Source of the DNA: an uncultured Bacilli bacterium
Lineage (GTDB): Bacteria > Bacillota_I > Bacilli_A > ML615J-28 > CAG-313
DNA length: 64,000 nt
Reading direction: 5' to 3'
Assembly (NCBI GenBank): GCA_947591495.1
Contig: CANQDG010000005.1
Location: 3,387-67,386, forward strand
The notes under the pieces are model-generated. The model saw only the letters and a program-made list of their open reading frames with translations, was not told the origin of the DNA and did not search any database. A program made the position numbers and the translations under genes. How positions within the stretch are numbered: the stretch's first letter is position 1; the number at the start of each line of letters is the position of its first letter. Shown one piece after another: positions 4,345 through 46,045 of this stretch.

Positions 4345-4528
4345 TTGAAAGACAAATATTGGCAAGAAATAAATGTATTTTCAATTAATAATCTTCGCAT
4401 AATAATATTGCATAAAGAAAGTATCTTGATTCGTTATTAGGAGAACATATAATATTCCCTTTGTTTAGAACTATTAACTAGACAGATAAAATCTACTTAT
4501 GCTACTTTAGTCAAAGAGGTGACAAAAA

Positions 4529-4717: not shown

Positions 4718-4729
4718 GCATAACTTATC

Positions 4730-4765
4730 AAAAAAGTATAGGTGTCAAACTTATACTTTTTTTTA
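4730..4765. terminator. Bidirectional intrinsic terminator between convergent genes
   Basis: A-run, stem AAGTATA/TATACTT, T-run. Overlaps the stop of the minus-strand ZIP gene. Confidence 0.55.
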
Positions 4766-5521: not shown

Positions 5522-5661
5522 AAAACCACCTAAAATGTTTAACTAATAAACAATATGTGTTAAATTTTAAAAATATGCTTTTAATCTATTTGACTATTAA
5601 GATAATTTTTGATATAATTTTCTCATATACATATTAATAATAAAGGAGTTGAGAATATAAT

Positions 5662-7994: not shown

Positions 7995-8013
7995 ATCATA
8001 AAGAGTTTTCTTT

Positions 8014-8070
8014 AAATCTTTATTTTAAACTGGTTAAGATCAAAATACTAGTTTAAATAAAGATTTTTTT
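8014..8070 (+). terminator. Intrinsic terminator of the CNNM pair
   Basis: About 18-bp stem AAATCTTTATTTTAAACTGG / CTAGTTTAAATAAAGATTT followed by T7. Confidence 0.7.
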
Positions 8071-8150
8071 ATTTAGCAACTAAAAGCAAAATAAAAGCAA
8101 AAAAGCTTAATTTTTTATATAATAATTATGAGAAAGTAGGAGGTAAAAAA

Positions 8151-13755: not shown

Positions 13756-15195
13756 ATGAGAAAAAGTTATTTGTTACTCATTTCCTTAATAATGCTTTTT
13801 AGTTTTACAGGATGCAAAAAAAAGCAAGGTCAATTTAAAACGTTAGAACAAATTAGAGAAGATGTTAATTCCTTTGATGTCATTATGGATTATAATGGAA
13901 TCGTCTTTGAATTAATTAAAACGTCTCAAGGCTATTATTATGCTTTTGATGAAAAAAAGCTTGCTATTTATTATGATCAAAAGACTAATCAATCATATCA
14001 AATTGACAATTCCCAAAAACAAAAATTATTATTAATGGATAACTATGATTTTAGTGATCCCCTAGAAGATGTTTATTATGTTTTAACAAGACATTTAAGT
14101 GATCCTAAAATTGCCTATTTTAAGACGCGTAAATCAACTTATTTAAATCGTGATATTACGGAATATTATGATGAAAAAAATAATCTTAAACAATATTATT
14201 ATCTTGATGATGAAACCGGTGCTTGTCTTTATTTTCACATTGTAAATGATAGTAGTGATATCGTTTGTAAAGTTAATCAATTTAAGTTAGGAAACAATTT
14301 CCTTGATCAATTTGCTACCTACACCGCTGTTGAAACGGCTAATAAGGCTAATTTAAAATCAACTACTGAGGTAAGAAAACATTTTACAACATATGATTTA
14401 ACCATTAAGTATAATAAACAAAACATTCATTTAATTAAAGATCAACAAGGCCTATTCTTATCAACTGATAGTAATGATCAAACTTTGCTATATAGTATTA
14501 CGGAAGACAAATGGTATACGGTTGATTTAGTTAATCAAACAAGAAGTTTATATGAAACAAATGGCAATGATCCAAGTGCTTTAGAACAACAAATTTTAGA
14601 TTTAATTACTAATTATCAAGCCAATATTGATGAAAACTTTTATGAAATAAAAAATCAAACTTATTTAGATTATCAAGATGTTAGTTTATACACGAAAAGA
14701 TTTTTGATTAAGAATGATTTATATATGCAAAATTATCTAATTGATAACCAAACAGGTATTTGTTTAAGCATTGAAATAAGCAATCCTACTGCGAGCATAT
14801 CTTTAAATATTATTGATTTTAAACAAGTAGGTGATGTAAGTTTATACTTAAATTATCCAGTTAAAAAGTTGCCTTATACTAGTTGGCCTAAGGATCATCC
14901 TTATTTAGAAGGACTTGAAGAAATTAGAGGTGGAAGTTTTTACGTAGCCTATGAAGATAATGATAATTTAATCATTGAATATCGTAATTTTACAAGTTCT
15001 TTATTTGATCAAGCCCTTAATCAATTTAAAAGGGCAGGATTTACCAATGATGTTAGTGAAAATAAAGATGTTCAAAGTGGCGGCCGTATTTATACTTATT
15101 ATATTTATAATGCCACAAGTAGTAATGGTTTAATGCTCAAAATGGAATATTATAGTGATGGCGTTTTTCGCATAACTTTAGGATATTCATTATAA
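13756..15195 (+). CDS. Hypothetical lipoprotein with internal duplication
   Basis: ATG at 13756 after SD AGGTGA. Lipobox FSFTGC. Two related ~170-aa halves (..YYLDDETGACLYFHIVN.. versus ..NYLIDNQTGICLSIEISN..). Confidence 0.6.
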   Translation: MRKSYLLLISLIMLFSFTGCKKKQGQFKTLEQIREDVNSFDVIMDYNGIVFELIKTSQGYYYAFDEKKLAIYYDQKTNQSYQIDNSQKQKLLLMDNYDFSDPLEDVYYVLTRHLSDPKIAYFKTRKSTYLNRDITEYYDEKNNLKQYYYLDDETGACLYFHIVNDSSDIVCKVNQFKLGNNFLDQFATYTAVETANKANLKSTTEVRKHFTTYDLTIKYNKQNIHLIKDQQGLFLSTDSNDQTLLYSITEDKWYTVDLVNQTRSLYETNGNDPSALEQQILDLITNYQANIDENFYEIKNQTYLDYQDVSLYTKRFLIKNDLYMQNYLIDNQTGICLSIEISNPTASISLNIIDFKQVGDVSLYLNYPVKKLPYTSWPKDHPYLEGLEEIRGGSFYVAYEDNDNLIIEYRNFTSSLFDQALNQFKRAGFTNDVSENKDVQSGGRIYTYYIYNATSSNGLMLKMEYYSDGVFRITLGYSL

Positions 15196-15207
15196 AAGAT
15201 GTTTGTT

Positions 15208-15275
15208 AAAATGAACCCCAATTGTTAAACAAAACTTTGATATGCCAAAGTTTAACAAAGAGGGTTCATTTTTTA
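15208..15275 (+). terminator. Long hairpin terminator
   Basis: AATGAACCC..TTGTTAAAC..ACTTTG pairs with CAAAGTTTAACAA..GGGTTCATT, followed by T5. Confidence 0.6.
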
Positions 15276-15324
15276 TGATTTATTGCAAAAGATAACAAGA
15301 AATATGACAATCTTTTTTATTTGC

Positions 15325-15353
15325 TTGAAAGAAAAAAAAGGATATGATAAAAT
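15325..15353 (+). promoter_or_regulatory. SigmaA-like promoter of the methyltransferase gene
   Basis: TTGAAA-17 nt-TAAAAT, 22 nt upstream of the ATG at 15376. Confidence 0.45.
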
Positions 15354-15375
15354 ATCAAATAGATGAGGTAAAATT

Positions 15376-18018
15376 ATGAGTGTAATGGATCATGATACAT
15401 TTATTGCTAAACTTCGAAGTAAATTATGTCAATCATTAAAACAAAAAAAGTTAGTAACTAAGTGGTTTGAAAGAATTATTACAATTGAATATTTAATTGC
15501 AAGAAAACTAGTTGAACAAGTTGATTATCGTAAAGATACGATATTAAAACTTTGCAAGTGGGAAAATCAAGTATTTAAAGGTATTTTCGAAAATAATCTT
15601 GATGAGCTAGCAAGTAATTATCCGACTAATTTTTATGATGAAGAAATGATTACGTTACTAAAAACATATATCAACGAAAAAACTCCAATTGAAGAAATTA
15701 GTAATTTTCAAGAAGATTTTAAAGATCATGAACGTTATACAGATTTAACTTATGATAATCGCAATTTACAAACAATTATTACAAAAGATAATATTGGAGC
15801 TGTTACCCAAATCTTTACACCCCCTTTTGTTGCTAAATGGATGGTTAGCCATGCTATGGATAGTAATAGCCAAGCTTTTTTGCATTATAAAGTTTTAGAT
15901 CCATGCCTTGGAACAGGCCAATTATTACTAGAAGTAACAGACCTCTTATTAGCAAAATATCAACTAGATAAAAAGATTAATCTAAAAAAAACAATTCAAA
16001 AAATTTACCATGAACAGCTTTATGGCTTTGATATAGATGAAAGCGTAATTGTTTTTGCTAAATTCTTGTTTGTAATGAAAGCTTGGGAAAAATGTCCAAC
16101 TTATTTAGATGATGAAGTTATCATTCCTAATTTTATTTGTTTAAAAAAACAACCAACAATTAAACAATTAGAAGATGTTTTTAGCAATATTGAGTTAGTT
16201 GGAAGTTTAGTGCGGGTGCCTGATCTTGATTATGATGCTATTTTAAAAAGCGTCCAAGATGAGGTAAAGCCATCAATCATAACTTGTCAAATGCTTAAGC
16301 AAAAATATGATTTAGTCATAACTAACCCACCTTATATGGGAAGAAAAGTGTTACCTGATTTTTTATTACAATATTTGAATCAACATTTTATTTATGGCAA
16401 ATCAGAGCTCTATACCGCTTTTATTGAAAGATGTTTAGAATATTTAGCACCAAATGGTAAATTAGCAATGCTAACTTTACATACTTGGATGTTTATTAAA
16501 TCTTTTTCTGCTTTAAGAAAGCATCTACTTACTGCTTTTCAAATCAAAGAAGTATTACATTTAGGGAAAAATACTTTTGCAAACTTAAATGCTTATAATG
16601 CACTAGCTTGTAGCTTTATTATTGAAAATAAGGCTAAAACTACGTTAAGTAGATTTGTTCGCTTAACTGAATATGATGATATTAATCAAAAAGAAGTAGG
16701 TTATCAAGATTTAAAAAATCATTATCTAATTGATCAAAAACAGTTCTTATACCTTGATAATTGTCCATTTATTTATTGGTTAAATGATCATGAAATGACC
16801 ATTTTACAAAAAAGTCCAAAACTTGGCTCATTGGCCAATATTAGGCAAGGTCTAGCAACCGGCAATAATAAAGAATATTTACGTTTATGGTATGAAGTTG
16901 ATCCAAGCGAGATTAGTTTTCATAGTAAGTCGCTGGCGGAATTTTTTCAAACAAAGAAAAAATATGCCCCATATAATAAAGGTGGTAGTCAAACTAAATG
17001 GTATAAAACGAGTAAAACTGTAATTAAATTTGATCAAACATCATTTAATCAATTACAAAAGCAAGGTAATCACTTACCATCTAAAGAATATTATTTTCAA
17101 GAAGGCATAACATGGTCACTTTTTGGTTTTAATAGTTTTAATGTGTGCTATAAAGAAAATGGTTATGTTTTTGATGTTTCAGGTTCAACAATGTTTGTTA
17201 AAAAACCTTGGGAAAAATATATTCTTGCTTATTTATCAAGTAATGTCGCTTTTTTCTTCTTATCCGCCATAGCCCCTACAGTAAATTTCCAAGTAGGTAA
17301 TCTTGCTAGCCTACCGGTTATTATTGATGAAAAGAAAGTGGTTGAAATTAACAAAATTGTCGATAGTTTAATTGATACATCACGCTATTTAGATGCCCAA
17401 GATGAATTATCTTGGAATTATCAAGCTAATGAAATTTATCAAAATTATCAAAGCAGTTTAACATTAGCCAAAAATTGTCAAATTTATTTAACAAAAAGGC
17501 AAAATCTTGCCCAATTAATTTATACAAATGAACAAACTATTAATCAAATTTTTCAAGAAATTTATCAAATTAATTTACCAAGTGCCACGCCTAAATTAAT
17601 TAAAACGCCAACTTATAAAGAATTAGTTACTGACCTTTTATCTTATTTAGTCGGTGTTGTCTTTGGTCGCTATCCTTTAGATAATTATCAAATAGGAATA
17701 AACAATGAAGAATTTATTGATGTTGCCCTATTAACTAGTAAAGTTGAAGAATTAATCGTGACTAAAATGAATTATCAAGCCCTTGAAGAAATGGAAAAAC
17801 TTTTACAAATGAATTTAAAGAGTTATTTTACTAATCATTTTGGTCGCTTACACATTAAACACTATCATGATGTGCCAATTTATTGGTATAAAGAAATCCA
17901 ACATAAAATGTTTATCGGTTATTATCATACATTAAAAAAAGATGTTATAATTGATAAAAACCAAACCATCAAAGAAAATTATTTAAAAAATAATTTATTT
18001 TATCATCTAAAGCGTTAA
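15376..18018 (+). CDS. Large stand-alone N6-adenine DNA methyltransferase, PglX/Eco57I-like (gamma class)
   Basis: QIFTPPFVAKWMV, SAM motif VLDPCLGTGQLL, LYGFDIDE, catalytic LVITNPPYMG. C-terminal IRQGLATGNNKEYLRLWYEV resembles the PglX/MmeI-family region. 880 aa. Confidence 0.85.
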   Translation: MSVMDHDTFIAKLRSKLCQSLKQKKLVTKWFERIITIEYLIARKLVEQVDYRKDTILKLCKWENQVFKGIFENNLDELASNYPTNFYDEEMITLLKTYINEKTPIEEISNFQEDFKDHERYTDLTYDNRNLQTIITKDNIGAVTQIFTPPFVAKWMVSHAMDSNSQAFLHYKVLDPCLGTGQLLLEVTDLLLAKYQLDKKINLKKTIQKIYHEQLYGFDIDESVIVFAKFLFVMKAWEKCPTYLDDEVIIPNFICLKKQPTIKQLEDVFSNIELVGSLVRVPDLDYDAILKSVQDEVKPSIITCQMLKQKYDLVITNPPYMGRKVLPDFLLQYLNQHFIYGKSELYTAFIERCLEYLAPNGKLAMLTLHTWMFIKSFSALRKHLLTAFQIKEVLHLGKNTFANLNAYNALACSFIIENKAKTTLSRFVRLTEYDDINQKEVGYQDLKNHYLIDQKQFLYLDNCPFIYWLNDHEMTILQKSPKLGSLANIRQGLATGNNKEYLRLWYEVDPSEISFHSKSLAEFFQTKKKYAPYNKGGSQTKWYKTSKTVIKFDQTSFNQLQKQGNHLPSKEYYFQEGITWSLFGFNSFNVCYKENGYVFDVSGSTMFVKKPWEKYILAYLSSNVAFFFLSAIAPTVNFQVGNLASLPVIIDEKKVVEINKIVDSLIDTSRYLDAQDELSWNYQANEIYQNYQSSLTLAKNCQIYLTKRQNLAQLIYTNEQTINQIFQEIYQINLPSATPKLIKTPTYKELVTDLLSYLVGVVFGRYPLDNYQIGINNEEFIDVALLTSKVEELIVTKMNYQALEEMEKLLQMNLKSYFTNHFGRLHIKHYHDVPIYWYKEIQHKMFIGYYHTLKKDVIIDKNQTIKENYLKNNLFYHLKR

Positions 18019-33128: not shown

Positions 33129-33150
33129 ATTTATGAAAGGAAAAGAAAAT

Positions 33151-36072
33151 ATGCAAAAGAAATTATTATTAATTAGTTTTATTTTATTTATTATTTGCCT
33201 TTTACCTAGTTGTAAAAAGGCTGCTAGTTTAAAATATGATCTTGAAAGTGATGAACAAGTTGTTAATCCTTATGAGGGAAAAATTAAAGTGGGGGATAAT
33301 TTGAAAAATTTATTAGAAAACGCCACTGCTACTAAAACAGGATATCATTTTTTGGGGTGGTCATTAGATGGCCAAAACTTAATTAGTGATAACCAAAAAG
33401 TTGAAAACCAAGAAGTAATAGTTAAACCGCTTTTTGAAAAAGCAACTTATACGATAACTTATAAAATTAATGATAAAGTTTGGATGGAACAATCTTATAA
33501 ATATGAAGAAACAATTTCTAAACCAAATGACCCTGTATTAGATGATTATGATTTTGTTAATTGGGATATGGAAATTCCTGATATAATGCCAGCTAAAAAT
33601 CTTGTTGTAAATGCTATCTTGAATGAAAAAATTTATACAGTAACTTTTATTATTGATGAAAATACCCAATTTATTCAAAAATATAATTATCAAGATGAAA
33701 TTGTGCCACCGACAGATTTTGCTAAAGAAGGGTATACTTTTACAAGTTGGGATCACGACGTGCCTGAAACAATGCCAAAAGAAAATCTAACCTTTAGAGC
33801 TGTTTTTAGTGCTAATACTTATACGATTACTTATGTAGTAGAAGGTGTTGAAGAAGATGTTACTTATCACTATGGTGATCCAATAAATAAAAAACAATCA
33901 CCAGAAAAGGTTGGTCATACTTTTATCGGTTGGGACGCTCTTGAACCTGATACAATGCCAGCTCATAATTTACGTTTAGTTGCTCAATTTAGAATAAATA
34001 GTTATACCATTACTTATATAGTAGATGGCACTGAAGAAAAGGTAACATATGAATATGGTCAAAAAATTGTAAAACCATCTTCTCCAGTAAAAGTCGGATA
34101 TACATTTACTGGTTGGAGTGTCACAATCCCTGATACAATGCCAGACCATAATATTACTGCTAGAGCACAATTTAGCATTAAAAGTTATCAAGTAACCTTT
34201 AAAATAGAAGGTAAACCTGATATTGTTTTAACTGTTCCTTATAATAGTGAAATTAAAGCACCAGATAGACCACTTAAAGATGGATATCGTTTTGTAGGAT
34301 GGGATCAACCAATTCCATCTAAAATGCCTGCGGAAGATCTTGTTTTTAATGCTCTTTTTGAAGAATTTTTAACGGCTCAAGATGCAAGTGGTAGTAAAGT
34401 ATTGTTCATTGGACATGCAGGAAGCGCTTTGGGTATTATGAATACAGAAGAGGCATTTCTTAATGCGGTTAAAGTTAAAGGCTATAATGCTTTAGAATGT
34501 GATCTTAAACAAACTAAAGATGGCGTTTTTGTGCTTTGTCATGATGATACTTTTGGTGGATTAGATCTTGCTAGTACAAATTGGGCTAATTTAAAAGATG
34601 TTGAGATTACTCAAACTAGAAATAATGTTAGTTACAAAACGAAAATTTGTACTTTAGAGCGTTATCTTGAAATTTGTCAAGAATATGGCGTTTATCCTGT
34701 CATTGAATTAAAATGGTCAAATGGTATTAATAATAATGATACTTCAAGAATGGCGGCTTTAATGCAACAAATTGCTAATCAAAATATGTTAGATAAGGTT
34801 ATTTTCTTAGGCTCACAATATAAATGCTTAGAATGGGTTAGAAATAATGGTTATGATTACATCCCTTGTCAATATTTAGTTAATTCAGCTGATAGTGAAA
34901 GTGTTTTAAATCGTTGTATTGAATGGAATTTTGATGTTAGTTTTAATATTTCATCAACTAATACCAAAGAATGGATTGACCGTTACCATGAGGCCGGTAT
35001 TAACGTAGCTTGTTATACCTTTAGTGTTTACCAAAGTGCAAGCGATTTGCAAAAATGGCTTGATATGGAAGTTGATTTTGTAACTTGTGATGCTTTAACA
35101 AGAGATGATGTTAATGTTCCAGTTCGCCCTGATGATAGTAAATTGCCAACCTATACAGTTACTTTTACAGATGGAAATGGTAATACGATTAAACAATCTA
35201 AAGTTAAACAAGGTCGAAATGCTGTTTCACCAGTTGAACCAGAAAGACTTGGCTATCATTTTACGGGATGGGATGGCAATTATCAAAATGTACAAAGCGA
35301 TTTAACCATTAATGCCCTTTGGGAAATTGATGAATATAATATTATTTATGATGCTAATTTATCAACCATTGATATTGTTAAATGGAATAGTAAAGCTGAA
35401 TTTATTGATGAATTTTATACTGATTGGTTTAATTGGTTAGCAGCTAATGTTGGTAAAATTAATGGTTTAACCAAAAGCGGTGATACTTATACTTTAATAA
35501 CTAATCCTAGTAATGCAAAGGCTAAAGCGCAATGGACAGATGTTGAAAGCCTTAAAGCCCTTGATATATATGTGGTTGAATTAACTATTGGAACCCTTGT
35601 TTATCAACCAATAAAAGGTGAAAATAGTAAAGATTATATACCGGTTGTAGCTGATGGATATTTCTTAAATACAGAACCATATCGAACAAAATATATTGAA
35701 TTAAATGCTTATTTTTTAAATGTTATGGAAAAAGCATATACTGGTTATAGTAGAACTTATAATCAAAATGGTGGTAAAGTTCAAATCTTCTTTAGATTCC
35801 ATCAATGGCAACAAGGCACGTCGATTCCTACTTTTGATACTTTACCAAATAAACATAATATTAATGAAGTAGTAGATCCAAGTGTTGTTTTACCAACGAC
35901 TCATTCTAAATATACAGTTGAAGATGAGTTTACCCTCGAAGCAGCTACAAGAGATGGTTATACTTTTGAGGGTTGGTATAAAGATCAAGCTTGTAGTGAA
36001 AAAATCGAAAAAATTACCAAAGGTATGACGGGTCAACTCGTATTATATGCTAAATGGGTTAAAAACGAATAA
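33151..36072 (+). CDS. Large surface lipoprotein: Listeria-Bacteroides (Flg_new) repeats flanking a GDPD-like phosphodiesterase domain
   Basis: Lipobox LLPSC. At least six ~65-aa repeats of the type YTITY....Y.YG..I..P..P.K.GYTF.GW.....MP..NL. Central FIGHAGS..MNTEEAF..ECDLKQTKDGVFVLCHDDT. Repeats resume near the C-terminus (GYHFTGWDG, GYTFEGWY). Confidence 0.8.
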   Translation: MQKKLLLISFILFIICLLPSCKKAASLKYDLESDEQVVNPYEGKIKVGDNLKNLLENATATKTGYHFLGWSLDGQNLISDNQKVENQEVIVKPLFEKATYTITYKINDKVWMEQSYKYEETISKPNDPVLDDYDFVNWDMEIPDIMPAKNLVVNAILNEKIYTVTFIIDENTQFIQKYNYQDEIVPPTDFAKEGYTFTSWDHDVPETMPKENLTFRAVFSANTYTITYVVEGVEEDVTYHYGDPINKKQSPEKVGHTFIGWDALEPDTMPAHNLRLVAQFRINSYTITYIVDGTEEKVTYEYGQKIVKPSSPVKVGYTFTGWSVTIPDTMPDHNITARAQFSIKSYQVTFKIEGKPDIVLTVPYNSEIKAPDRPLKDGYRFVGWDQPIPSKMPAEDLVFNALFEEFLTAQDASGSKVLFIGHAGSALGIMNTEEAFLNAVKVKGYNALECDLKQTKDGVFVLCHDDTFGGLDLASTNWANLKDVEITQTRNNVSYKTKICTLERYLEICQEYGVYPVIELKWSNGINNNDTSRMAALMQQIANQNMLDKVIFLGSQYKCLEWVRNNGYDYIPCQYLVNSADSESVLNRCIEWNFDVSFNISSTNTKEWIDRYHEAGINVACYTFSVYQSASDLQKWLDMEVDFVTCDALTRDDVNVPVRPDDSKLPTYTVTFTDGNGNTIKQSKVKQGRNAVSPVEPERLGYHFTGWDGNYQNVQSDLTINALWEIDEYNIIYDANLSTIDIVKWNSKAEFIDEFYTDWFNWLAANVGKINGLTKSGDTYTLITNPSNAKAKAQWTDVESLKALDIYVVELTIGTLVYQPIKGENSKDYIPVVADGYFLNTEPYRTKYIELNAYFLNVMEKAYTGYSRTYNQNGGKVQIFFRFHQWQQGTSIPTFDTLPNKHNINEVVDPSVVLPTTHSKYTVEDEFTLEAATRDGYTFEGWYKDQACSEKIEKITKGMTGQLVLYAKWVKNE

Positions 36073-36093
36073 ACCATAATGATTTATTAATTA

Positions 36094-36134
36094 AAAAGGT
36101 TAAAGTATTAAATGATACTTTAGCCTTCTTTTAC
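36094..36134 (+). terminator. Hairpin terminator after the surface protein gene
   Basis: AAGGTTAAAGTAT / ATACTTTAGCCTT stem, then a T-rich tail (CTTTTACTTTT). Confidence 0.5.
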
Positions 36135-36179
36135 TTTTCATAATAGTAACAATCTTAATAAAGGAAAGATAATAATTGT

Positions 36180-36208
36180 TTGCAAAAACCGCTAGATAAT
36201 GTTATAAT
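36180..36208 (+). promoter_or_regulatory. SigmaA-like promoter of the TIR-like operon
   Basis: TTGCAA-17 nt-TATAAT, 36 nt upstream of the ATG at 36245, which has SD GAGGAGG. Confidence 0.55.
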
Positions 36209-36244
36209 AAGAATAAGAAAAAAAGATAAAACGAGGAGGTTTTT

Positions 36245-37336
36245 ATGCTTTTAGTTGAAAAAAGTCGAATGTCTGAACAATTATTCGACTCAAATGTAAT
36301 AATCACATCATTAGAAGAAGATAAAATAGCAGTTACCGAATTAATGCTAGAATTTAATATTGTAGGATTAAATTACGTCTTTTTAGCCAAAAGTAAAAAT
36401 ATCATTAATGATTATTGGTATTGGCGCGCATGTGAAGATAGTTTAAAAAGAGCAAGTTGTTTGGTTTTAGTTATGTCGAAACGCTTCTTTTTAGAAGAAA
36501 ACAAAATTAGACGTGAATCATTTTGGTATGAAGTAGGGGTAATGGAAGCAAGAGGCCAAAATGTAATTCCTTATATTATTGATATTGAAAAAAATGAATG
36601 GGATAATTACTTAAATAAGACTCCCATTAGACAAAAACAAGCAACTAATAATATCAATGATCTTATTAAAATTATCGAAACCACTCGTGCTTTTAAAAAG
36701 AGTTTTTATGCTGAGCGAGATATTGCTTTATATGCTAACTCACGTATTTTTTATTCTAAAATATCAGTTTTATTTAATATAAAAAAAGAAGTCTTAGAAT
36801 TTATCTATGATCGTCTTAAACGACTTGATGATGATGATATACAAACCAAAAATGATATTTTAAATCTATTACATCGCGAAGTTAATTTTGGCATTAAATT
36901 ACATCGCTTTGGAAGATATTGCTTTATTCAACATCCATATTATTCAACTTATCTTGCGGAAGCCCAAGTTCTTAATCTTGATTGCAACCCAACTAATATT
37001 GTTAATCATTTTACGATTTTATCTCAAAATGTTAATAATGGTGTATGTGCGGTTAAAGTTGATTTTATTTTGCCTAACCATGAAATTTTAGGCGTTGCTT
37101 TTAAGCCATATATGGAAATTAACAAAAATTCAGTTATCAAAAAAGGTGATTTAGTTAAATTATTACAATTAGAAAATAATGAGCAACTATGTGAAGAAAA
37201 AATGGATATTATAATGGCTAAAACCGACAAAACTGAACGAGTTTATTTTAATTTATATTTTGATGATGATAATCAAATTGTTGAATGTAATGATGAAGAA
37301 ATTGGTAAAACTTGTAATTTCTTCTATGCAAAATAG
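36245..37336 (+). CDS. ThsB/TIR-like N-terminal domain protein with an unknown C-terminal domain (paralogue A, 363 aa)
   Basis: CLVLVMSKRFF...ESFWYEVGVMEARGQNVIPYII fits the TIR/DUF1863 pattern (buried strand, S-x-W-x-x-E helix, G-x-x-[IV]-I-P strand). The betaA strand is degenerate (VIITSLEED). The C-terminal ~200 aa is unrecognised. Confidence 0.6.
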   Translation: MLLVEKSRMSEQLFDSNVIITSLEEDKIAVTELMLEFNIVGLNYVFLAKSKNIINDYWYWRACEDSLKRASCLVLVMSKRFFLEENKIRRESFWYEVGVMEARGQNVIPYIIDIEKNEWDNYLNKTPIRQKQATNNINDLIKIIETTRAFKKSFYAERDIALYANSRIFYSKISVLFNIKKEVLEFIYDRLKRLDDDDIQTKNDILNLLHREVNFGIKLHRFGRYCFIQHPYYSTYLAEAQVLNLDCNPTNIVNHFTILSQNVNNGVCAVKVDFILPNHEILGVAFKPYMEINKNSVIKKGDLVKLLQLENNEQLCEEKMDIIMAKTDKTERVYFNLYFDDDNQIVECNDEEIGKTCNFFYAK

Positions 37337-37345
37337 GGTGATTTT

Positions 37346-38371
37346 ATGAAAATTAAATATAGTATACAAAAATTAAATAATGGTGATAGTAATTATTCTA
37401 TTTTTTTAAGCCATAGTAATGCGGATGATAGTTGGCATGAAATAGAAGAAGTACTAAAATTAAATGATATTAATGTTGTATCAGATGTGGAAATTGAACC
37501 TGGTAATCCCGATTTTTCTCAATGTATAAAAAATATGATAAAAAATAATGAAATTGTTGTATCAATCATTCATAATAAAAAACTTACTTCATGGATGGTT
37601 TATGAATTAGGGATTGCTGCAGGGTTAGGGAAAAAAATTATAATGTATAGCAAAGAATATGTTGATGAAAATGATAATCATCTTTTTGGTCAATATGGAC
37701 CAGTTATTACAGATTTAAAGGTTCTAGTTCATGAAATTAAAAATGGTTTTTTCTTTGCGGACTTATTCCAGTATGAAACTAATAATTTAAGTAAAAAACA
37801 CTTCCTTGCAGATTGCATGACTAACATTAATATTTGTAAACTATCGTTTAAAATACCAGGAATTGAAGATATTCCAAGACAGGTTTATAAGTTTGGTTAT
37901 ATTTTATTATCGGTTTCGCGCTATGAAAAAATGGGCAATAATAATCGTTCAACTGATATATGTAATATGACAGCCGAAGAAATTATTGATTGTAAATGTA
38001 ATATTGATAATGAAATTTGTAGCCTTTATTCTAAACAAGTATTTAATAGCCCCACGGATGTTATTCTCAATAAAATATTATATAATTGTAATGTTGATTT
38101 ATTTAATCAAACCATTTATTTTGCAATACCTTATAATGCTAAACGAGGAGTAACTTTTAAATGCTTTGTGGATGTTGAAAATATGGATTATGTTCAAAAT
38201 ATTATGACAACTTTAGAAAAGGCAGGCTTACAAGATATTGGTGTTTCCCATTCCGTTTTAGGCAATCGTATTTATTTTATTTTACCTCAAAGTGTTATGC
38301 AAGGCTTATTTATAGTTGAAGCTCCTGATGGATTCATTAATAATTATCTTTGTAAGGGAGCTATCTTATGA
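37346..38371 (+). CDS. ThsB/TIR-like N-terminal domain protein with an unknown C-terminal domain (paralogue B, 341 aa)
   Basis: YSIFLSHSNADD (TIR betaA-type) and IVVSIIHNKKLTSWMVYELGIAAGLGKKIIMY (W-x-x-Y-E-L...G-K-K-I-I). The C-terminal domain resembles that of paralogue A (IYFAIPYNAKRGVTFKCFVDV versus VDFILPNHEILGVAFKPYMEI). Confidence 0.65.
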   Translation: MKIKYSIQKLNNGDSNYSIFLSHSNADDSWHEIEEVLKLNDINVVSDVEIEPGNPDFSQCIKNMIKNNEIVVSIIHNKKLTSWMVYELGIAAGLGKKIIMYSKEYVDENDNHLFGQYGPVITDLKVLVHEIKNGFFFADLFQYETNNLSKKHFLADCMTNINICKLSFKIPGIEDIPRQVYKFGYILLSVSRYEKMGNNNRSTDICNMTAEEIIDCKCNIDNEICSLYSKQVFNSPTDVILNKILYNCNVDLFNQTIYFAIPYNAKRGVTFKCFVDVENMDYVQNIMTTLEKAGLQDIGVSHSVLGNRIYFILPQSVMQGLFIVEAPDGFINNYLCKGAIL

Positions 38372-40278
38372 GAAATTTATTAAGAACTCCAACTTTAATG
38401 AAGGTTAAATTAACAAGTTGGGCACAAAATTATTTAGATACTATGCTAGAAGGATTAACTGGTAATTTACCAAAGTTATTTTATCCTTTTAATACTAATT
38501 GTTGGTTAAATAAAAGTTTCCAAGATGGAGGTCTAGAAGGCTGGTGGCCTTATGAACAAGTTGCTTATTGGTTAGATGGATATCTAAAATGTGCTTATTT
38601 TGCAAATAACGAATATCATTTAAAAAAAGCTAAAGAAATGATTGATAATGCTTTAGAAGTTTGTGATGAAAGTGGTTTTATAGGGGCTCAAGAGTTGAAA
38701 GCCCAAGGTCAAGGAAATCAATGGGTTCATGCCGTTTTTTTCAGAGCTGTTTTATTTTTATATGAAATAACCGAAGATTCTAAATATCTTAATAAAATAA
38801 CTAATCATTATTTAAGTCATACTTCTGATTATGCAAGCTGGCGTGAATCAGTTAATATTGAAAATATGATTATGTGTTATTTATATAATAATGATGAGCG
38901 CTTAAAAAACTTAGCGCTTGATGCCTATCAAAAACATTGTAAAATAGCAACTAATCAAGAAACAAAAATGCAAGATTTTTTATTGTCAAAACCGATTAAA
39001 TTACATGCGGTAACATATAATGAAATGGTCAAAATTCCGGCATTACTTTATGCTGTTACGAATGATAAAAACTATTTAAATGCATCAATTAAAGGCTTAA
39101 AGCGAATTGAAAAAAATCATATGCTTCCAATTGGTATTCATAGTTGTTGTGAAAACTTTGCGGGGCAAGATGCTTTAGCGGGAATTGAAACTTGTGATAT
39201 TAGTGATTATTGTTGGACTCTAGGATATATGGCTCAAATAACCGGTGATGCCAAATATTTAGATAAAATCGAAAAAATTATGTATAATATTGCCCCAGGA
39301 GTAGTTGATCAAGATTTTAAATCATTACAATATTTTTCTGCACCTAATCAAGTTATTAGTACCCATTATAGCAATCACACGCAAAGTTTTACCCAAACCC
39401 CAAGAATGGCTTATCAAGCTAATCATTATCCAGAATGTTGTAGTGGTAATGTTAATCGTAGTATGCCTAATTTTATCTATCGTGCCTTAATGAAAGATGA
39501 TGAGGCATATTATATTAATTTTTATATTCCTGGTCATTATGAAGTAGATAATATAGCATTTGATATTGTTACTAATTATCCCTATGATGAAAAAATTGAA
39601 ATTATTTATCAAGGAACAAATCAAGTTTTAAATTTAAATTTACGAATACCTCATTGGTGTAAAAATTTCACATATCATAGTAATCATCAAGGTAAAATTG
39701 TTAATCATCGTTTAAACCTAAAGGGTTTATTTGAAAAAGGTGAAAAAATAGTTTTAACTATTAAAAGTGAAGTTGAAGTTAAAAAAACTAGTGAAGGCTT
39801 TTTGGTTACCAAAGAACCCCTTATTTTTACGCTTGACATAGAATATCAAAAAACAATTGATTAAACCGAACCACGTCAAACGAAAGATTATCCAGCCTAT
39901 GATATTATTCCCCTTTCTAAGTGGCAAATTGCATTGGATAAAAAAATGTTTGAAAAAACTTACTGTTTACACAAAACTGATGTTAATAATATTTTACAAA
40001 ATGACTATTATCTTTTGGCTAAAGGTTTTTATATGAATGGTGTTGATTTAATTAATGTTGATTCAGCCGATGTCCCTATTTCTGATTATGATCAAGTTGA
40101 ACTAGTGAAGTTAAAAAGAATGGGGCAAATTATTTATGATGGACCAATGAAGTTTACGCCAGCTATTAAGGATTTACATCCAACATCAATCAAAAGTTTA
40201 GATATTAAATTAATTCCCTATGCTAGAGCTACTTTACGATGGACAATCTTTCCTAATGTAAAAAAATTAGCTTTATAA
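38368..40278 (+). pseudogene. GH127/DUF1680-family (beta-L-arabinofuranosidase-like) gene interrupted by one in-frame TAA at 39862-39864
   Basis: Track ORFs 38368-39864 and 39934-40278 share a frame, and the 23 codons between them are open. GH127 signatures GIETCDISD (E-x-C), HYPECCSGN (CC), LRIPHW, LIPY. ATG overlaps the upstream TGA (ATGA). SD AAGGGAG. Confidence 0.8.
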
Positions 40279-40387
40279 TTATCAAATTAAACTGATAAAT
40301 AAAAGATTTTAATAATGATAAAAGAGTGTTTAATTTTTATCAAAAAAAGAAAAAATATGATATACTAATATTTATGAGGAAAAAAAT

Positions 40388-41704
40388 ATGAAACCAACTA
40401 TTACTATTATTGGTGCAGGGCTTGCGGGGAGCGAAGCAACCTATCAACTTGCCAAAAGAGGATATCTTGTAACCTTATATGAAATGCGGCCAACGAAATT
40501 TACTTCAGCACATAAGACAGCTAATTTTGCCGAATTAATTTGTAGCAATTCTTTAAGAGCAGCAGGTATTGAAAATGCGGTAGGCCTTTTAAAAGAAGAA
40601 ATGCGTCAAATGGATTCTTTAATTATTAAGGCAGCGGATGCTACTAAAGTAGAAGCAGGTGGAGCATTAGCTGTTGATCGGGAATTATTTTCCCAATATG
40701 TTACTAATACAATTAAAAATTTACCTAATGTCCATATTATTAATGAAGAAGTAACTAAAATTCCGCAAGGTCCATTAATTATTGCAACCGGTCCGCTTAC
40801 ATCAGAGGCCTTACAACAAGAAATTGCGACCTTATTAGGCGAAAAATATTTATATTTCTTTGATGCGATCGCTCCCATTGTAACAGCTGATTCGCTTAAT
40901 ATGGATAAAATCTTTTTAGCTTCTCGTTATAATAAAGGGGAGGCTGCATATCTTAATTGCCCAATGAATGAAGAAGAATTTAATCGCTTTTATGAATTTT
41001 TAATTAGTGCTGAAAAAGTAACACCGCATGATTTTGAAATGAAAGTCTTTGAAGGATGTATGCCAATTGAAGAAATGGCTTTAAGAGGTAAGAAAACATT
41101 ATTATTTGGACCGATGAAACCAGTAGGTTTAGATAATCCAAGAACAGGTAAAAGACCATATGCCGTTGTTCAATTACGCCAAGATAATTTAATTAAAAGT
41201 TTATATAATTTAGTTGGCTTTCAAACTCATTTAAAATTTCCTGAACAAAAGAAATTGTTATCACTTATTCCTGGCCTTGAACATGCTCAGATTGTGCGCT
41301 ATGGTGTAATGCATAGAAACACTTATATTAATTCAAAAAAGCTTTTAAATAATGGTTATCAACTATTAACAAATCCCGACATCTTTTTTGCGGGGCAAAT
41401 GACAGGCGTTGAAGGATATGTTGAATCGGCTGCAAGTGGCTTGATAGCTGGCATTAATATGGCAAGACATTTAGAAGGAAAACCAAATCTTAATTTAGAT
41501 ACTACAACAGCCATCGGAGCGCTGAGTAATTATATTGCTTATCATGAAGCAAGCGACTACTTAGAGCGGTTTGATCCGATGAATGTTAATTTTGGTCTTT
41601 TTGCTGAACTTTTGGTTAATCCCCCTAAAAAAGAAAAAAAGATAACTTTGGCCAACCGCGCTTTAACTAATTTAAACAAAATATTACAAGAAATAAATGA
41701 ATAA
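40388..41704 (+). CDS. trmFO: Methylenetetrahydrofolate--tRNA-(uracil-5-)-methyltransferase TrmFO
   Basis: FAD-binding N-terminus [39 protein letters not shown]. Confidence 0.95.
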
Positions 41705-41722
41705 ATAAAAGAAGGAATCACA

Positions 41723-42730
41723 ATGGCATTAAAAAAAACAGTCCGTGGTAATCAACGTTCGGTTAATCGACACAATGTCGTTACGAAGGATAATTCTAAA
41801 AGTAAAGAAGATTTAGTTCAAGAGGCTTTAACGAAATATCATAATTATTTAGAAGTAGAAAAAAATTATTCCATTTATACCGTTCAAAATTATTTAAAAG
41901 ATATTGATGAATTTAAAATGTTTCTTACGAAAGAAAATTATGGTGATTTATTAAATATTAAATCGGATAATATTGCAAGATATTATGTATCAAATTTAGT
42001 AACTAGTGGTTATTCAAGAAAAAGTATAGCACGCAAAATTTCAAGTTTACGCGCCTTTTATCGTTATTTAACCGTAGAAAATCTTATTAATAAATCATAT
42101 TTTGATAATGTTGAAACCCCTAAAATTGAAAAAAGATTACCGAAATTTTTGTATCAAAATGAAATAGAAATGATGTTTAATGCAATTGATACATCACAGC
42201 CACTTGGTATGAGAGATTGTGCTTTATTAGAATTATTATATGGATCAGGTTTACGGGTTAGTGAAATATGTTCTATTACAGAAAAAAATTTAGATTTTCC
42301 AAATGAAATGATTAAAGTATTTGGAAAAGGTCATAAAGAAAGATATGTTCCTATGAATATTAGAACTATTGAAGCATTAAAGAAATATATTCATGTAGGA
42401 CGTCCTAGTTTGATTCATAATGTAGAATTAGATCCGCCACTTGAGTTGTTTGTTAATCATCATGGTGGACCATTAACCCCTCGAGGTGTTAGAGTAATAT
42501 TAGATAATATTATTGAAAAAACGGGTGAACTTGGGCATGTTTATCCACATATGATTCGGCATACTTTTGCGACTCATCTTTTAGATGGAGGCGCTGATTT
42601 AAGAAGTGTTCAAGCAATGCTAGGTCATGAGAATTTATCGACCACCCAAATTTACACCCATGTTTCAAAAGAGCAAATAAAAGAAAGCTATATGTTAAAT
42701 CATCCTAGACAAACTAGGAAAAATTCATAA
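41723..42730 (+). CDS. xerC: Tyrosine recombinase XerC (CodV-like)
   Basis: Catalytic residues in context (GLRVSE, HMIRHTFATHLL, LGHENLSTTQIYTH). Sits immediately after trmFO, as in Bacillus. Confidence 0.85.
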   Translation: MALKKTVRGNQRSVNRHNVVTKDNSKSKEDLVQEALTKYHNYLEVEKNYSIYTVQNYLKDIDEFKMFLTKENYGDLLNIKSDNIARYYVSNLVTSGYSRKSIARKISSLRAFYRYLTVENLINKSYFDNVETPKIEKRLPKFLYQNEIEMMFNAIDTSQPLGMRDCALLELLYGSGLRVSEICSITEKNLDFPNEMIKVFGKGHKERYVPMNIRTIEALKKYIHVGRPSLIHNVELDPPLELFVNHHGGPLTPRGVRVILDNIIEKTGELGHVYPHMIRHTFATHLLDGGADLRSVQAMLGHENLSTTQIYTHVSKEQIKESYMLNHPRQTRKNS

Positions 42731-42755
42731 AGTAAAAAATGAGGAGAAGGACTAA

Positions 42756-43229
42756 ATGGTAAAAATATTAAAGGCTACGCTTGAGGATGCTTTGACCTTA
42801 TTGCAAATTCAAAAAGAGGCTTTTTTAGTATATTCAGAAAAATATGGCGATTTTGATAGCAATCCATATCATATGGATTTACATCGAATGGAGTTTAATA
42901 TTAAATATCGTTTTGGACAATATTATAAAATCATTGATGAAGAAAATAACCAAATTGTTGGCGGCATCTTTTGCTTTGAACTTGATGAACAACCAATTAT
43001 GAAAATTGCCCAATTTTATTTTAAGAAAGAATATCAACATTTAGGATATGGCACTTTTGTTTTGAAAGAATTATTTGCTAAAAATCCTGATGTCCATAAA
43101 TGGTATGTAGATACAATTATGCAAGAAGAATATAATGTTCAATTTTATAAACATATGGGCTTTATAGAAATTGATTCCGAAGAAGAACATGAAGGATTAA
43201 CTTTTGTAACATTAATGAAAAATAATTAA
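42756..43229 (+). CDS. GNAT-family N-acetyltransferase
   Basis: 157 aa. Acetyl-CoA binding segment YQHLGYGTFVLKELF. Confidence 0.8.
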   Translation: MVKILKATLEDALTLLQIQKEAFLVYSEKYGDFDSNPYHMDLHRMEFNIKYRFGQYYKIIDEENNQIVGGIFCFELDEQPIMKIAQFYFKKEYQHLGYGTFVLKELFAKNPDVHKWYVDTIMQEEYNVQFYKHMGFIEIDSEEEHEGLTFVTLMKNN

Positions 43230-43239
43230 AAAACAGATG

Positions 43240-43286
43240 ACTTTCTAGATTTTTATAAGCGTAAAAATTTAGAAAGTTTTAATTTT
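43240..43286 (+). terminator. Intrinsic terminator
   Basis: ACTTTCTAGATTTTT / AAAAATTTAGAAAGT (one mismatch) followed by a T-rich tail. Confidence 0.6.
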
Positions 43287-43307
43287 AAAAATAAAAATTT
43301 ATATTAT

Positions 43308-43336
43308 TTGATAAGATAAAAAAAATATGTTATAAT
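43308..43336 (+). promoter_or_regulatory. SigmaA-like promoter of rpsB-tsf
   Basis: TTGATA-17 nt-TATAAT. Confidence 0.6.
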
Positions 43337-43343
43337 AAACAAT

Positions 43344-43428
43344 GGCCTAAGAGGCAAAAATACACATAAGAAAGTAGCAAGCCGTCGCGTTTATTAATGG
43401 CGTGCTTGTGTAGATCTTCTTAGAGGCC
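43344..43428 (+). promoter_or_regulatory. Structured rpsB 5' leader (long irregular hairpin)
   Basis: GGCCT.AAGA...TACACA...AGCAAGCC pairs with GGCGTGCT.TGTGTA...TCTTAGAGGCC. Relatively GC-rich for this window. Confidence 0.4.
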
Positions 43429-43456
43429 AAAACAAAATAAAATGGAGGAAAAAAAT

Positions 43457-44395
43457 ATGGCTGTAATTACAATGAAGCAATTACTAGAAGCTGGCGTTCA
43501 TTTCGGTCATCATACTCGCCGTTGGAACCCTAAAATGAAAGAGTATATTTTTAATGAAAGAAATGGTGTGTACATCATTGACTTACAAAAAACTGCTGAT
43601 AAGATTGAAGAAGCTTATGCAGCAATGGTTGAAATTGTTCGAAACAACAATAAAGTATTATTTGTTGGTACAAGAAAACAAATTCAAGACATAATTAAAG
43701 AAGAAGCTATTCGTGCAGGTCAATATTATGTTGATCAAAGATGGCTTGGCGGAACAATGACTAACTTTAAAACTCTTCGTAAATCAATTGCAAAACTTCA
43801 TAAATACGAAGAAATGGAAGAAAGTGGAACATTTGAATTATTACCAAAAAAAGAAGTAAGTGCTATTAAAAAAGAAATGGCTAAACTTGAATCTTTCTTT
43901 GGTGGTATTAAAGATATGCAACAACTTCCAGGAGCATTATTCGTAGTTGACCCTAAAACAGAACATAATGCGGTTGCCGAAGCACGTAAATTACATATTC
44001 CTGTTTTTGGTCTTGTTGATACAAACTGTGATCCTGATGAAGTAGATTATGTTATTCCAGCTAATGATGATGGTGTTAGAGCCGTTCGTTTAATTGTTGG
44101 TGTAATGGCAAACGCTGTTTTAGAAGGAAATGGTGTTGCGGTAGAACCTTATACCCTTCCTGAAGAAGAAAAACCTGAAGAAGCACCACGCCCTGTTAAG
44201 CAACCAAAAGAACCACGTCCTGAAAAGAAACCTAATAAAAAAGTTCGTGCACCAAAAGAAGAAACAGCTGAAAAAGCCGATGTTGAAACACCTGCTGAAA
44301 GTGCTGAACAAGTAGTAGAAGAAACCCCTGTTGATCCAGTTAGCGAACAACCTGAAGAAATCGCAAAAGAAGCTTCAAAAGAAGAAGCTGAATAA
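43457..44395 (+). CDS. rpsB: 30S ribosomal protein S2 with a ~80-aa acidic/Lys-Pro-rich C-terminal extension
   Basis: [18 protein letters not shown] start, 8 nt after SD GGAGG. The conserved core runs to about VLEGNG, then [27 protein letters not shown]...EEAE. Confidence 0.95.
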
Positions 44396-44422
44396 TAATT
44401 AATCATAAGGAGAAAATAAAAA

Positions 44423-45319
44423 ATGATTAGTGCATCTTTAGTAAAAGAATTAAGAGAAAAAACGGGTGCTGGTATGATGGATTGCAAAAAAGCCCTTACT
44501 GAATGTAATGGTGATATTAATGCAGCTGCCGACTGGCTTCGTGAAAAAGGTATAGCTAAAGCCGCTAAAAAAGCAACAAGAATTGCGGCTGAAGGTTTAT
44601 GTGATGTTGCTATTAATGGCAATAAAGCATATTTAGTTGAATTAAATTCTGAAACTGACTTTGTGGCAAAAAATGAAAAATTTTTAGAACTACTTCATCA
44701 AGTATGTGAAGCTTGCGTTCAAAATGATACCGCATGTGAAAAATGCACCCTTGCTTCAACTTTAAATGGCACAACTATTGAAGAATTAATTGTTAACGCA
44801 ACTGCTACAATTGGTGAAAAAATTAGTTTACGTCGTGTCTTAAAAGTCGAAAAGAATGATGATGAAGTTTTCGGTGTTTATAAACACAATGGTGGTAAAA
44901 TTGTTGTTTTATCAGTTATTAAAGGAACTGATGCAATGGTTGCCAAAGATGTTTGTATGCATGTTGCAATGTATAATCCACGCTATTTAAATGAATCTGC
45001 TATTGATCCTAAAGATTTAGAACATGAAGCAGAAGTAATTAAAGCTGAAATTGCAAATGATCCTGCTAATGCATCAAAACCTGAAAACATTATTGAAAAA
45101 ATGGTGATGGGTCGTCTTAATAAATTCAAAAAAGAAATTTGTTTAGTTGACCAAGCATTTGTTAAAGATCCTAATGTTACAGTAGGTCAATATTTGAAAA
45201 ATCATAATACTGAAGCTGTTAATTATGCTCGTTTCGAAGTAGGCGAAGGCATGGAAAAACGTAATGATGATTTTGCAGCCGAAGTTGCAGCCGCAGCTGC
45301 AGCCGCTAGCAAACACTAA
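44423..45319 (+). CDS. tsf: Elongation factor Ts
   Basis: UBA-like N-terminus LVKELREKTGAGMMDCKKAL. 298 aa. Confidence 0.95.
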   Translation: MISASLVKELREKTGAGMMDCKKALTECNGDINAAADWLREKGIAKAAKKATRIAAEGLCDVAINGNKAYLVELNSETDFVAKNEKFLELLHQVCEACVQNDTACEKCTLASTLNGTTIEELIVNATATIGEKISLRRVLKVEKNDDEVFGVYKHNGGKIVVLSVIKGTDAMVAKDVCMHVAMYNPRYLNESAIDPKDLEHEAEVIKAEIANDPANASKPENIIEKMVMGRLNKFKKEICLVDQAFVKDPNVTVGQYLKNHNTEAVNYARFEVGEGMEKRNDDFAAEVAAAAAAASKH

Positions 45320-45337
45320 TTACGCTAGGAGGTAATA

Positions 45338-46045
45338 ATGAAACACATAGTACTACTAAAACTTTCTGGTGAAGCATTAGCCAAAAACGATGGTTTTGGT
45401 ATAAAGATGGAAAAAGTCAAAGCAATTGCTGAGGAAATAAAAAAACTAAAAGATACTGGTGTTTCAATGGGAATTGTTACAGGAGCTGGCAATATTTGGC
45501 GAGGTCGTGATGCAGTAGAAATTGGTATGGATCGCATTTCAGCTGATTATATGGGAATGATGGGAACAATCTTAAATTCAATGGCTTTAGCATCTTCGTT
45601 AGAATCAATTGGCGTTAAAGCCCGTGTAGTAAGTTCACTTCCTGTTGGTTCTATTGTTGAGCCTTATAATCAAAAAGAGGCGAAAAAGTGCCTTGAAAAT
45701 GGTGAAATCGTCTTGTTTGCCGGCGGAACGGGAATGCCATTTTTTAGCACCGATACAAATGCAGCACTTCGCGCATGTGAAATGGGAATAGATTTAATTT
45801 TAATGGCTAAGAATGGTACAGATGGCGTATATGATAGTGATCCAAGAAAAAACCCTAAGGCCAAAAAATTTACTCAAATTACTTATGAAGAAATCATAAA
45901 TAATCATTTAGGAGTAATGGATTTAACCGCTGCGAGCCTTTGTGATGAAAACAATTTAAAAGTAATTGTTTTTGATATGGCAGTTAGTGGTAATATAAAA
46001 AATGTTATAGAACATCCAGAAATTGGAACAATTATAACTAAATAA
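45338..46045 (+). CDS. pyrH: UMP kinase
   Basis: LLKLSGEAL, GAGNIWRG, FAGGTGMPFFSTDT. Confidence 0.95.
   Translation: MKHIVLLKLSGEALAKNDGFGIKMEKVKAIAEEIKKLKDTGVSMGIVTGAGNIWRGRDAVEIGMDRISADYMGMMGTILNSMALASSLESIGVKARVVSSLPVGSIVEPYNQKEAKKCLENGEIVLFAGGTGMPFFSTDTNAALRACEMGIDLILMAKNGTDGVYDSDPRKNPKAKKFTQITYEEIINNHLGVMDLTAASLCDENNLKVIVFDMAVSGNIKNVIEHPEIGTIITK

Follow-up and report, generated by a model that had tools for sequence, protein, structure and literature searches.

Paired TIR-type proteins coupled to a GH127-type glycosidase gene: a candidate conflict cassette in an uncultured Bacilli bacterium

In a 64,000-nucleotide stretch of DNA from an uncultured Bacilli bacterium (contig CANQDG010000005.1, positions 3,387 to 67,386 of the forward strand; hereafter the window), three genes, A, B and C, follow one another as a compact operon. 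We propose, with about even confidence, that A-B-C is a member of an undescribed TIR-based conflict cassette, probably directed against phages. Protein B is a TIR-domain protein as judged by sequence, protein A is TIR-like by its predicted fold only, and C is a conserved, very divergent GH127-type enzyme, probably active. Among relatives of the operon, the conserved core is the pair of one A-type and one B-type protein, while glycoside hydrolases of three families and a membrane protein, here called D, recur beside it and are tightly coupled to it. Bacteria, plants and animals share TIR domains as the enzymatic core of their immune signalling. To our knowledge, each new set of TIR partners has so far revealed new NAD-derived chemistry.

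Results

The A-B-C operon and its conservation

Gene A (36245–37336, 363 amino acids) and gene B (37346–38371, 341 amino acids), like gene C, its internal stop, the promoter-like site and the terminator-like hairpin described below, lie on the forward (+) strand. They are separated by 9 nucleotides (nt), and each has a Shine-Dalgarno-like sequence, GAGGAGG at 36233–36239, 5 nt ahead of the ATG of A, and AGGGTGA at 37335–37341, ahead of the ATG of B. An earlier note on this DNA, made from the letters alone, had reported these open reading frames (ORFs), their spacing and their ribosome-binding sites; all are present, and the peptide motifs that it quoted are all found in the two translations. 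The same note took A and B for a self-contained operon of two, and the following GH127 gene for an unrelated neighbour. Our data revise both views. The TGA of B and the ATG of gene C (38368–40278) overlap as ATGA (38368–38371), and C, which encodes a GH127/DUF1680-like six-hairpin glycosidase, is translationally coupled to B and conserved together with A and B. An alternative genetic code, in which TGA would be read as tryptophan, was rejected because the B orthologues all terminate at the same position.

In a set of 5.8 billion proteins, A and B have only ~22–26 clusters each when 90% identity is the limit, all full-length, of the same length and 42–77% identical. Most sources of this main clade are gut metagenome-assembled genomes labelled Christensenellaceae, Christensenella or Clostridia. 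In every locus (L001–L014, L017–L019 and L024–L026), A is followed by B after 7–15 nt, so that the pair co-occurs throughout. In each of the 10 distinct loci examined that extend far enough past B, the start of C overlaps or abuts the stop of B, and A-B-C is kept wherever it can be read. The overlap is usually the 4-nt ATGA; L009 has, for its nearest candidate start, 1 nt. A metagenome scan added only three main-clade contigs, all of them short.

Gene C passes the Pfam cut-offs for both the GH127 catalytic domain (PF07944, 51.6 bits against 24.9) and the middle domain (PF20736, 27.4 bits against 24.2). Its divergence is seen in a phmmer E-value of 1.8e-4 to the GH127 structure 4qjy and in a score far under the NCBIfam cut-off for aceric acid hydrolase. 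Ten C proteins, 52–86% identical, have 204 residues invariant, among them E262, E274-x-C276 and C357-C358. Of these, E274-x-C276 and C357-C358 align with E-T-C and C-C in 4qjy; in HypBA1 we take these to be the zinc ligands (a Glu/Cys3 metal site) and the cysteine nucleophile. The conservation of C, the retention of these GH127 residues and the coupling to B together make C part of the operon.

In the window, C is interrupted by an in-frame TAA at 39862–39864. Read through this codon, the frame continues to 40278 and gives 636 residues, compared with 628–641 amino acids for intact orthologues. The site reads D*TEPR in the window and DKTEPR, with a lysine codon, in L002, the sole orthologue read at that position. 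The window's copy is the only one of ten with an internal stop, and the other nine read through. Since the 137 codons past the TAA are open and conserved, the stop is either a recent nonsense mutation or a sequencing or assembly error.

Protein B carries a TIR domain

Protein B consists of a TIR domain (residues 17 to ~135) and a C-terminal domain, here called X, that holds a cysteine-rich insert. The TIR domain matches the Pfam family TIR_2 (PF13676) over residues 19–100 with 30.1 bits, above the cut-off of 28, and the B orthologues carry a precomputed PF13676 assignment. Distant B-type partners score 29.4 and 31.5 bits with TIR_2. Matches to the PADLOC ThsB models are weak (1.8e-7 and 1e-5), and Pfam ThsB_TIR is matched, at 0.02–0.03, solely in distant B-type proteins. 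A profile of the B family finds the bacterial TIR structures 8btn and AbTir in the PDB with E = 2e-3 to 9e-3, and the glutamate of S-x-W-x3-E is aligned with theirs. The key residues of B are SHS at 22–24, W83 and E87, the last encoded at 37604–37606. There is no change at W83 or E87 among 23 orthologues, nor among the alignable distant B-type and solo relatives, except in P0067 (Ala). The [VI]F[IL]S[HY] strand and the W-x3-E motif are kept in every B-type partner and in nearly every solo protein.

The AlphaFold 2 (AF2) model of B has a mean predicted local distance difference test score (pLDDT) of 74, with low confidence at the Cys-rich stretch 194–233 and at the C-terminus, 327–337. In Foldseek searches with the N-terminal domain, nucleoside 2'-deoxyribosyltransferases (NDT) and DNPH1 are the best matches (E = 8e-6), followed by the TIR domains of SPARTA, RPS4 and SARM1 (6e-5 to 5e-4). 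The fold likeness to NDT is common to TIR domains too. B passes TIR_2 and stays under the cut-off of Nuc_deoxyrib_tr (PF05014; 20.0 bits against 28.8), and its sequence signature is that of TIR and not of NDT.

Protein A is a TIR-like partner

Protein A has a TIR-like domain at residues ~17–125 and an X domain at ~158–363. Searches of A against Pfam, NCBIfam, PADLOC and, by profile, the PDB gave no meaningful family match, and the ThsB models gave none. A weak RNase HI match of 16 bits, with a cut-off of 140, was discarded. The AF2 model of A (pLDDT 86) is matched by Foldseek to RRS1, BtpA, PdTIR and the SPARTA TIR with E = 5e-4 to 3e-3 and target-normalised TM-scores of 0.54–0.69. Distant A-type relatives match TIR_2 only weakly, and the A profile also matches canonical TIR-X proteins. 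The TIR layout that the earlier note recognised in both ORFs thus holds for B at the level of sequence, and for A at that of predicted fold, where no family matches. The expected TIR/flavodoxin-like fold is found by structure search for both, as TIR and NDT folds for B and as TIR folds for A.

The candidate catalytic glutamate of A is E96 (36530–36532). Among 38 A-type representatives, a glutamate is kept at this position in 20, replaced in 17 (by Q, F, I, V, H, A or R) and gapped in one. In the window's clade E96 is kept and the S-H/Y strand motif is absent, a combination that fits a non-catalytic or regulatory paralogue. The suggestion that A is a degenerate, probably regulatory partner agrees with this pattern, as the glutamate is invariant in B-type proteins and replaced in 17 of the 38 A-type ones.

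A and B are related over both domains

Pairwise comparison of A and B is weak by itself: BLASTP gives E = 0.12, and full-length hhalign is likewise not significant. Domain-wise hhalign gives 8e-4 for the two C-terminal domains and 0.014 for the two N-terminal domains, compared with 0.34–0.64 for mismatched-domain controls. An A-family profile run against 1.84 billion representatives found 67 proteins. About a dozen of them are intermediates of 300–320 amino acids that match the two family profiles colinearly in the N-terminal and C-terminal domains, with E-values at this database size as low as 2.5e-18 for A and 2.3e-22 for B. This transitive evidence is decisive: A and B are whole-length paralogues, homologous over both domains and belonging to one TIR-X superfamily. 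The relatedness of the C-terminal ~200 residues, proposed earlier from short shared motifs, is thereby supported through domain-wise alignment and intermediates, pairwise BLASTP alone being insufficient.

The X domains of A and B have in common the motifs P-x-[HN]-x3-G-[VT]-x-F-K and R-x-Y-F-x-L and a C-terminal N-[YF]-x-[YC]-[PK]. The X domain (C-terminal ~200 residues) matched nothing in Pfam, the PDB or BFVD, in agreement with the view that it fits no known family. Fold searches were read over the top 50 matches, down to E ~1e-2 in the PDB and 8e-2 in BFVD; the named matches among these are all TIR, NDT or other Rossmann-type folds, which leaves X without a match. Within X of B, the C-x9-C-x-C-x6-C cluster described earlier is present, but C216 varies, and the set that is invariant across three clades is C206 (37961–37963), C218, C225 and C336 (38351–38353). 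Both low-confidence segments of the B model hold invariant cysteines, as would fit a metal site that the model lacks, and the four cysteines probably bind metal.

Distant pairs recruit other glycoside hydrolases and a membrane protein

Distant pairs of A-type and B-type genes (A' and B') occur in six further clades, in other Firmicutes; the alignments A5 and A7 were too diverse to be used for locus searching. In Erysipelotrichaceae (L015/L016) a GH13 gene ends 1 nt before A', and B' is overlapped by a gene for a 685-residue membrane protein. In Haloplasmataceae (L032–L034) GH13 overlaps A' by 1 nt and B' follows. Two clades without a source label have GH77 instead. In L020 it precedes A'-B' with a 2-nt gap; in L035/L036 a gene for a 701-residue membrane protein is followed by a fusion of GH77 to A' and then by B'. 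The fusion is a single ORF of 853 residues (L035 8001–10562, also in L036), found on 3 contigs from at least two assemblies, and its GH77 part is a 4-alpha-glucanotransferase. The GH13 proteins are TreC-like and the GH77 proteins MalQ-like, and both look like ordinary full-length enzymes. In Acholeplasmataceae/Bacilli (L027–L031), A'-B' is followed by a gene for a 612-residue protein. Downstream of the pair of L022/L023, which has no source label, come a YjjG-type nucleotidase gene, at a distance of 257 nt, and then an unknown gene and one for a Ser/Thr kinase. In L022 these downstream genes (2629–5904) encode a YjjG-type non-canonical pyrimidine nucleotidase, a 531-residue protein and the kinase, and the contig holds no glycoside hydrolase. 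A solo TIR-X gene of ~300 residues, also without a glycoside hydrolase, was found in L021.

By a rough estimate, ~0.4 glycoside hydrolase neighbours would be expected by chance, assuming that ~3% of genes encode glycoside hydrolases and that 14 flanking positions are counted. With GH13, GH77 and GH127 taken as three independent associations, three were seen, and the linkage is therefore unlikely to be accidental.

The membrane proteins form a family of their own, D, with members at L015 10918–12975, L027 10107–11945, L035 5838–7943 and L008 12954–15131. The D proteins of L015, L027 and L035 are mutually homologous (E-values of 2e-42, for full length, and 4e-12), and the L008 homologue, a 725-residue gene directly past C, brings D into the main clade, so that D is a partner in four clades. 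D proteins have three hydrophobic transmembrane segments at the N-terminus, a G-x-G-x2-N Rossmann-like region and conserved E-H-x-R-W-N-A and Y-D-Y motifs. Pfam, NCBIfam, PADLOC and the PDB gave no assignment of D above threshold and no ThsA match; a TrkA_N match is sub-threshold, and there is weak likeness to the N-terminal part of polyprenyl glycosylphosphotransferases. Two further candidates were rejected, namely a 724-residue gene past C in L009, which is PriA, and an upstream fragment in L022, which could not be tied to D. D and X are new protein families.

Genomic context

The main-clade cassette lies at differing chromosomal sites in different genomes. In L017 it adjoins AbiD (8e-96) and PDC-M22A/B (defence genes 14149–17763), and in L019 a FokI-type type II restriction-modification system, PDC-M41A and a Mob gene (defence genes 2070–8638); of these, PDC-M22 and PDC-M41 are systems that PADLOC lists as candidates. 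A phage XkdX and a reverse-transcriptase fragment stand beside the cassette in L001. Elsewhere it is placed between glyA and a Clp-type ATPase gene (L008) or between ligA/yicC and priA (L009). The L009 contig also encodes, at 15615–17378, a second and unrelated TIR_2 protein of 587 residues with LRR_5, ~2.7 kb past A-B-C and beyond priA. Among the distant pairs, JetC of Wadjet (PADLOC, 1147 bits) lies two genes upstream of the GH13-A'-B'-D block of L015, and L035 is flanked by a recombinase and a WYL protein. JetC and a DUF3137 membrane protein occupy L015 2876–7249, directly upstream of that block. The neighbourhood of L020 is one of sugar metabolism, with SIS, GFO_IDH_MocA, AraC and a BadFG-type kinase.

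In the window, feoB and a surface-protein gene lie upstream of the operon, and trmFO, a xerC-like gene, rpsB, tsf and pyrH lie downstream. Neither these adjacent genes nor C encode a ThsA-type effector (SIR2/SLOG or Macro), as had been observed before for the surroundings of the pair. The order trmFO, xerC-like, rpsB, tsf, pyrH is common to the window (40388–46045) and L027 (5530–15390). A-B-C of the window sits just upstream of trmFO, while A'-B'-D of L027 sits between the xerC-like gene and rpsB. Given this shared synteny with differing junctions, two variants occupy one conserved chromosomal neighbourhood, which may be a hotspot for TIR-X cassettes.

A promoter following a terminator had been proposed for the operon. 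Sequences resembling both are there: a hairpin with a 14-bp stem followed by a T-run at 36096–36127, at the end of the upstream surface-protein gene and the sole terminator-like site within 35800–40600, and a TTGCAA-17-TATAAT sequence at 36180–36208 with a TG-extended -10 box and 10 of 12 matches. Promoter-like matches are common in this DNA of 29% GC (48 found, 32.5 expected), and the second element is therefore only suggestive, being weak evidence alone. No hydrophobic segments were seen in the proteins A, B or C, and all three are thus probably cytoplasmic. The upstream surface protein (33133–36072) has 979 residues and a glycerophosphodiester phosphodiesterase (GDPD) domain set among eight Listeria-Bacteroides repeats (Flg_new); proteins with Flg_new are also found upstream of the cassette in L002–L006.

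Discussion

The reading of A-B-C as part of a conflict cassette follows from TIR chemistry by homology, from the variable insertion sites and from the defence-gene neighbours in some loci. The TIR-X family is rare and patchy (~67 clusters at 50% identity among 1.84 billion), and several of its contexts are defence islands. In the mechanism that we envisage, B would be the catalytically competent partner, having the canonical [VI]F[IL]S[HY] strand and S-x-W-x3-E with its invariant glutamate. A, the divergent partner, would probably form hetero-oligomers with B and serve as its regulator or scaffold. A trigger would be sensed through the X domains, which may act as sensor or assembly modules. 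The TIR domain of B would then attack NAD+ or a related nucleotide at its N-glycosidic bond, leading to depletion or to an ADP-ribose-derived product. C, whose coupling is observed, may work in the same small-molecule pathway or as an output enzyme, as an integral component whose slot in sister clades is filled by GH13 or by GH77, once fused to A. By its appearance, D would be a ligand-gated membrane effector. The description of the pair as a two-component system without an effector therefore needs amendment, because C is coupled and co-conserved and distant relatives carry glycoside hydrolases and an effector-looking membrane protein.

Several points weigh against a conflict cassette. We infer NADase activity, oligomerisation and phage protection, and we know of no defence system that uses a glycoside hydrolase, which leaves the role of C without precedent. 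The N-terminal fold of B is slightly closer to nucleoside 2'-deoxyribosyltransferases than to TIR domains. In about half of the contexts the neighbours are housekeeping or sugar metabolism genes alone, and no relatives were found on viral contigs (A, A6 and A8 groups) or plasmids (tblastn). In addition, the window's copy has no D and carries the premature TAA in C; the cassette may thus be partly inactivated in this genome. Finally, a metabolic role accounts for the glycoside hydrolase linkage at least as naturally.

Such a role, which we consider rather unlikely, is the alternative that stands up best. A and B would be N-glycosidases or ligand binders of TIR/NDT fold that, together with the glycosidase, process or sense a glycosylated nucleoside, a nucleotide-sugar or an oligosaccharide, and D would be a transporter or channel. 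Three glycoside hydrolase families tightly linked or fused to the pair, the ordinary appearance of the GH13 and GH77 enzymes, the sugar metabolism genes around L020, the many loci among housekeeping genes and the NDT and DNPH1 proteins as best structural matches of B all agree with it. However, no single pathway emerges, since the substrates of GH127 are unrelated to those of the alpha-glucan enzymes, and solo members exist without any glycoside hydrolase. The sequence signature is that of TIR, the family is very rare and patchy, and the main-clade cassette is found at varied chromosomal sites, several of them inside defence islands.

The model of the earlier note, in which A and B alone would be a complete TIR NADase system of sensor and effector and the glycoside hydrolases mere passengers of the operon, appears improbable. 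It gains from the pair being the sole universally conserved part, from loci with only GH13-A-B (L032), with no glycoside hydrolase in the contig (L022) or with solo TIR-X genes, and from the truncation of C in the window while A and B are intact. It does not explain why the ATGA overlap of B and C is kept across sequences 52–86% identical, with C strongly conserved, and chance would hardly produce a tight coupling to GH13 and to GH77 independently, once even as a fusion. DNPH1 hydrolyses hydroxymethyl-dUMP. A defence against phages with sugar-decorated DNA or nucleotides, in which NDT/DNPH1-like domains would hydrolyse modified (e.g. hydroxymethylated or glycosylated) deoxynucleotides or bases and glycosidases would strip glucosyl or arabinosyl groups, is very improbable: the fold of B, the alpha-glucoside and beta-L-arabinofuranoside affinity of the glycosidase families and the pyrimidine nucleotidase downstream of B in L022 would suit it, but all of this is circumstantial, a DNA-binding domain was not detected, the motifs in the sequence resemble those of TIR domains and D is left without a role.

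Within the conflict reading, the linkage of TIR proteins and glycoside hydrolases could have a chemical basis. TIR transglycosidation combined with sugar addition or trimming by GH13, GH77 or GH127 would yield a sugar-decorated NAD-derived molecule that gates D. We regard this as a speculative and improbable extension. If true, the molecule would open a new chemical class among the immune second messengers of bacteria, and the cassette would be the first defence system to count a glycoside hydrolase among its core enzymes. The literature that we searched contained nothing linking TIR proteins to GH127/DUF1680, to glycoside hydrolases or to 4-alpha-glucanotransferase.

Comparison with known systems shows where the cassette resembles them and where it departs. 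Like ThsB of Thoeris (ThsB and ThsA, types I and II), B is a small bacterial TIR protein with a conserved catalytic glutamate and weak PADLOC ThsB matches. D, a membrane protein with a nucleotide-binding-type domain, recalls type II ThsA with its Macro domain and transmembrane segments, and several copies of the cassette adjoin other defence systems. Unlike Thoeris, the cassette has no SIR2/SLOG or Macro effector, and D is not similar to ThsA. Its two TIR paralogues are obligately paired, each with a novel X domain of ~200 residues, and the partner enzymes are glycoside hydrolases. In the plant heterodimer RPS4/RRS1 (PDB 4c6t), a catalytic TIR is likewise paired with a degenerate one; A matches the RRS1 TIR (4c6t_A, rank 2) and B the RPS4 TIR (4c6t_B, rank 21). 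A and B lack NB-ARC and LRR, and the likeness is an analogy of architecture only. In SPARTA TIR-APAZ, whose TIR domain is matched structurally by those of both A and B, the TIR is also fused to a non-catalytic C-terminal module. The cassette has no Argonaute partner, and since alignments to SPARTA beyond the TIR exceed 10 Å root-mean-square deviation, X is not APAZ.

On the enzyme side, NDT and DNPH1 share with B a flavodoxin-like fold and a glutamate acting on an N-glycosidic bond, and they are its best Foldseek matches. B differs in staying below the NDT family cut-off (20 against 28.8) while passing TIR_2, and its strand-A S-H/Y and S-x-W-x3-E motifs are of TIR type. C resembles the GH127 beta-L-arabinofuranosidase HypBA1 (4qjy) and DUF1680 proteins in passing the catalytic and middle domain cut-offs with E-x-C and C-C invariant. 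It differs in being very divergent, probably cytoplasmic and always coupled to a TIR pair.

What is new here is the combination of obligately paired catalytic and degenerate TIR proteins with three unrelated glycoside hydrolase families and a novel membrane protein; the searched literature ties none of these partners to TIR proteins. As a defence system, the cassette would represent a new effector or signal-processing class and the bacterial equivalent of the paired TIR receptors, whereas a metabolic cassette would put a bacterial TIR domain to a rare use outside immunity. In both cases X and D add new families, and E87 of B, the cysteines C206, C218, C225 and C336 of B, and C357 and C358 of C are clear targets for mutation.

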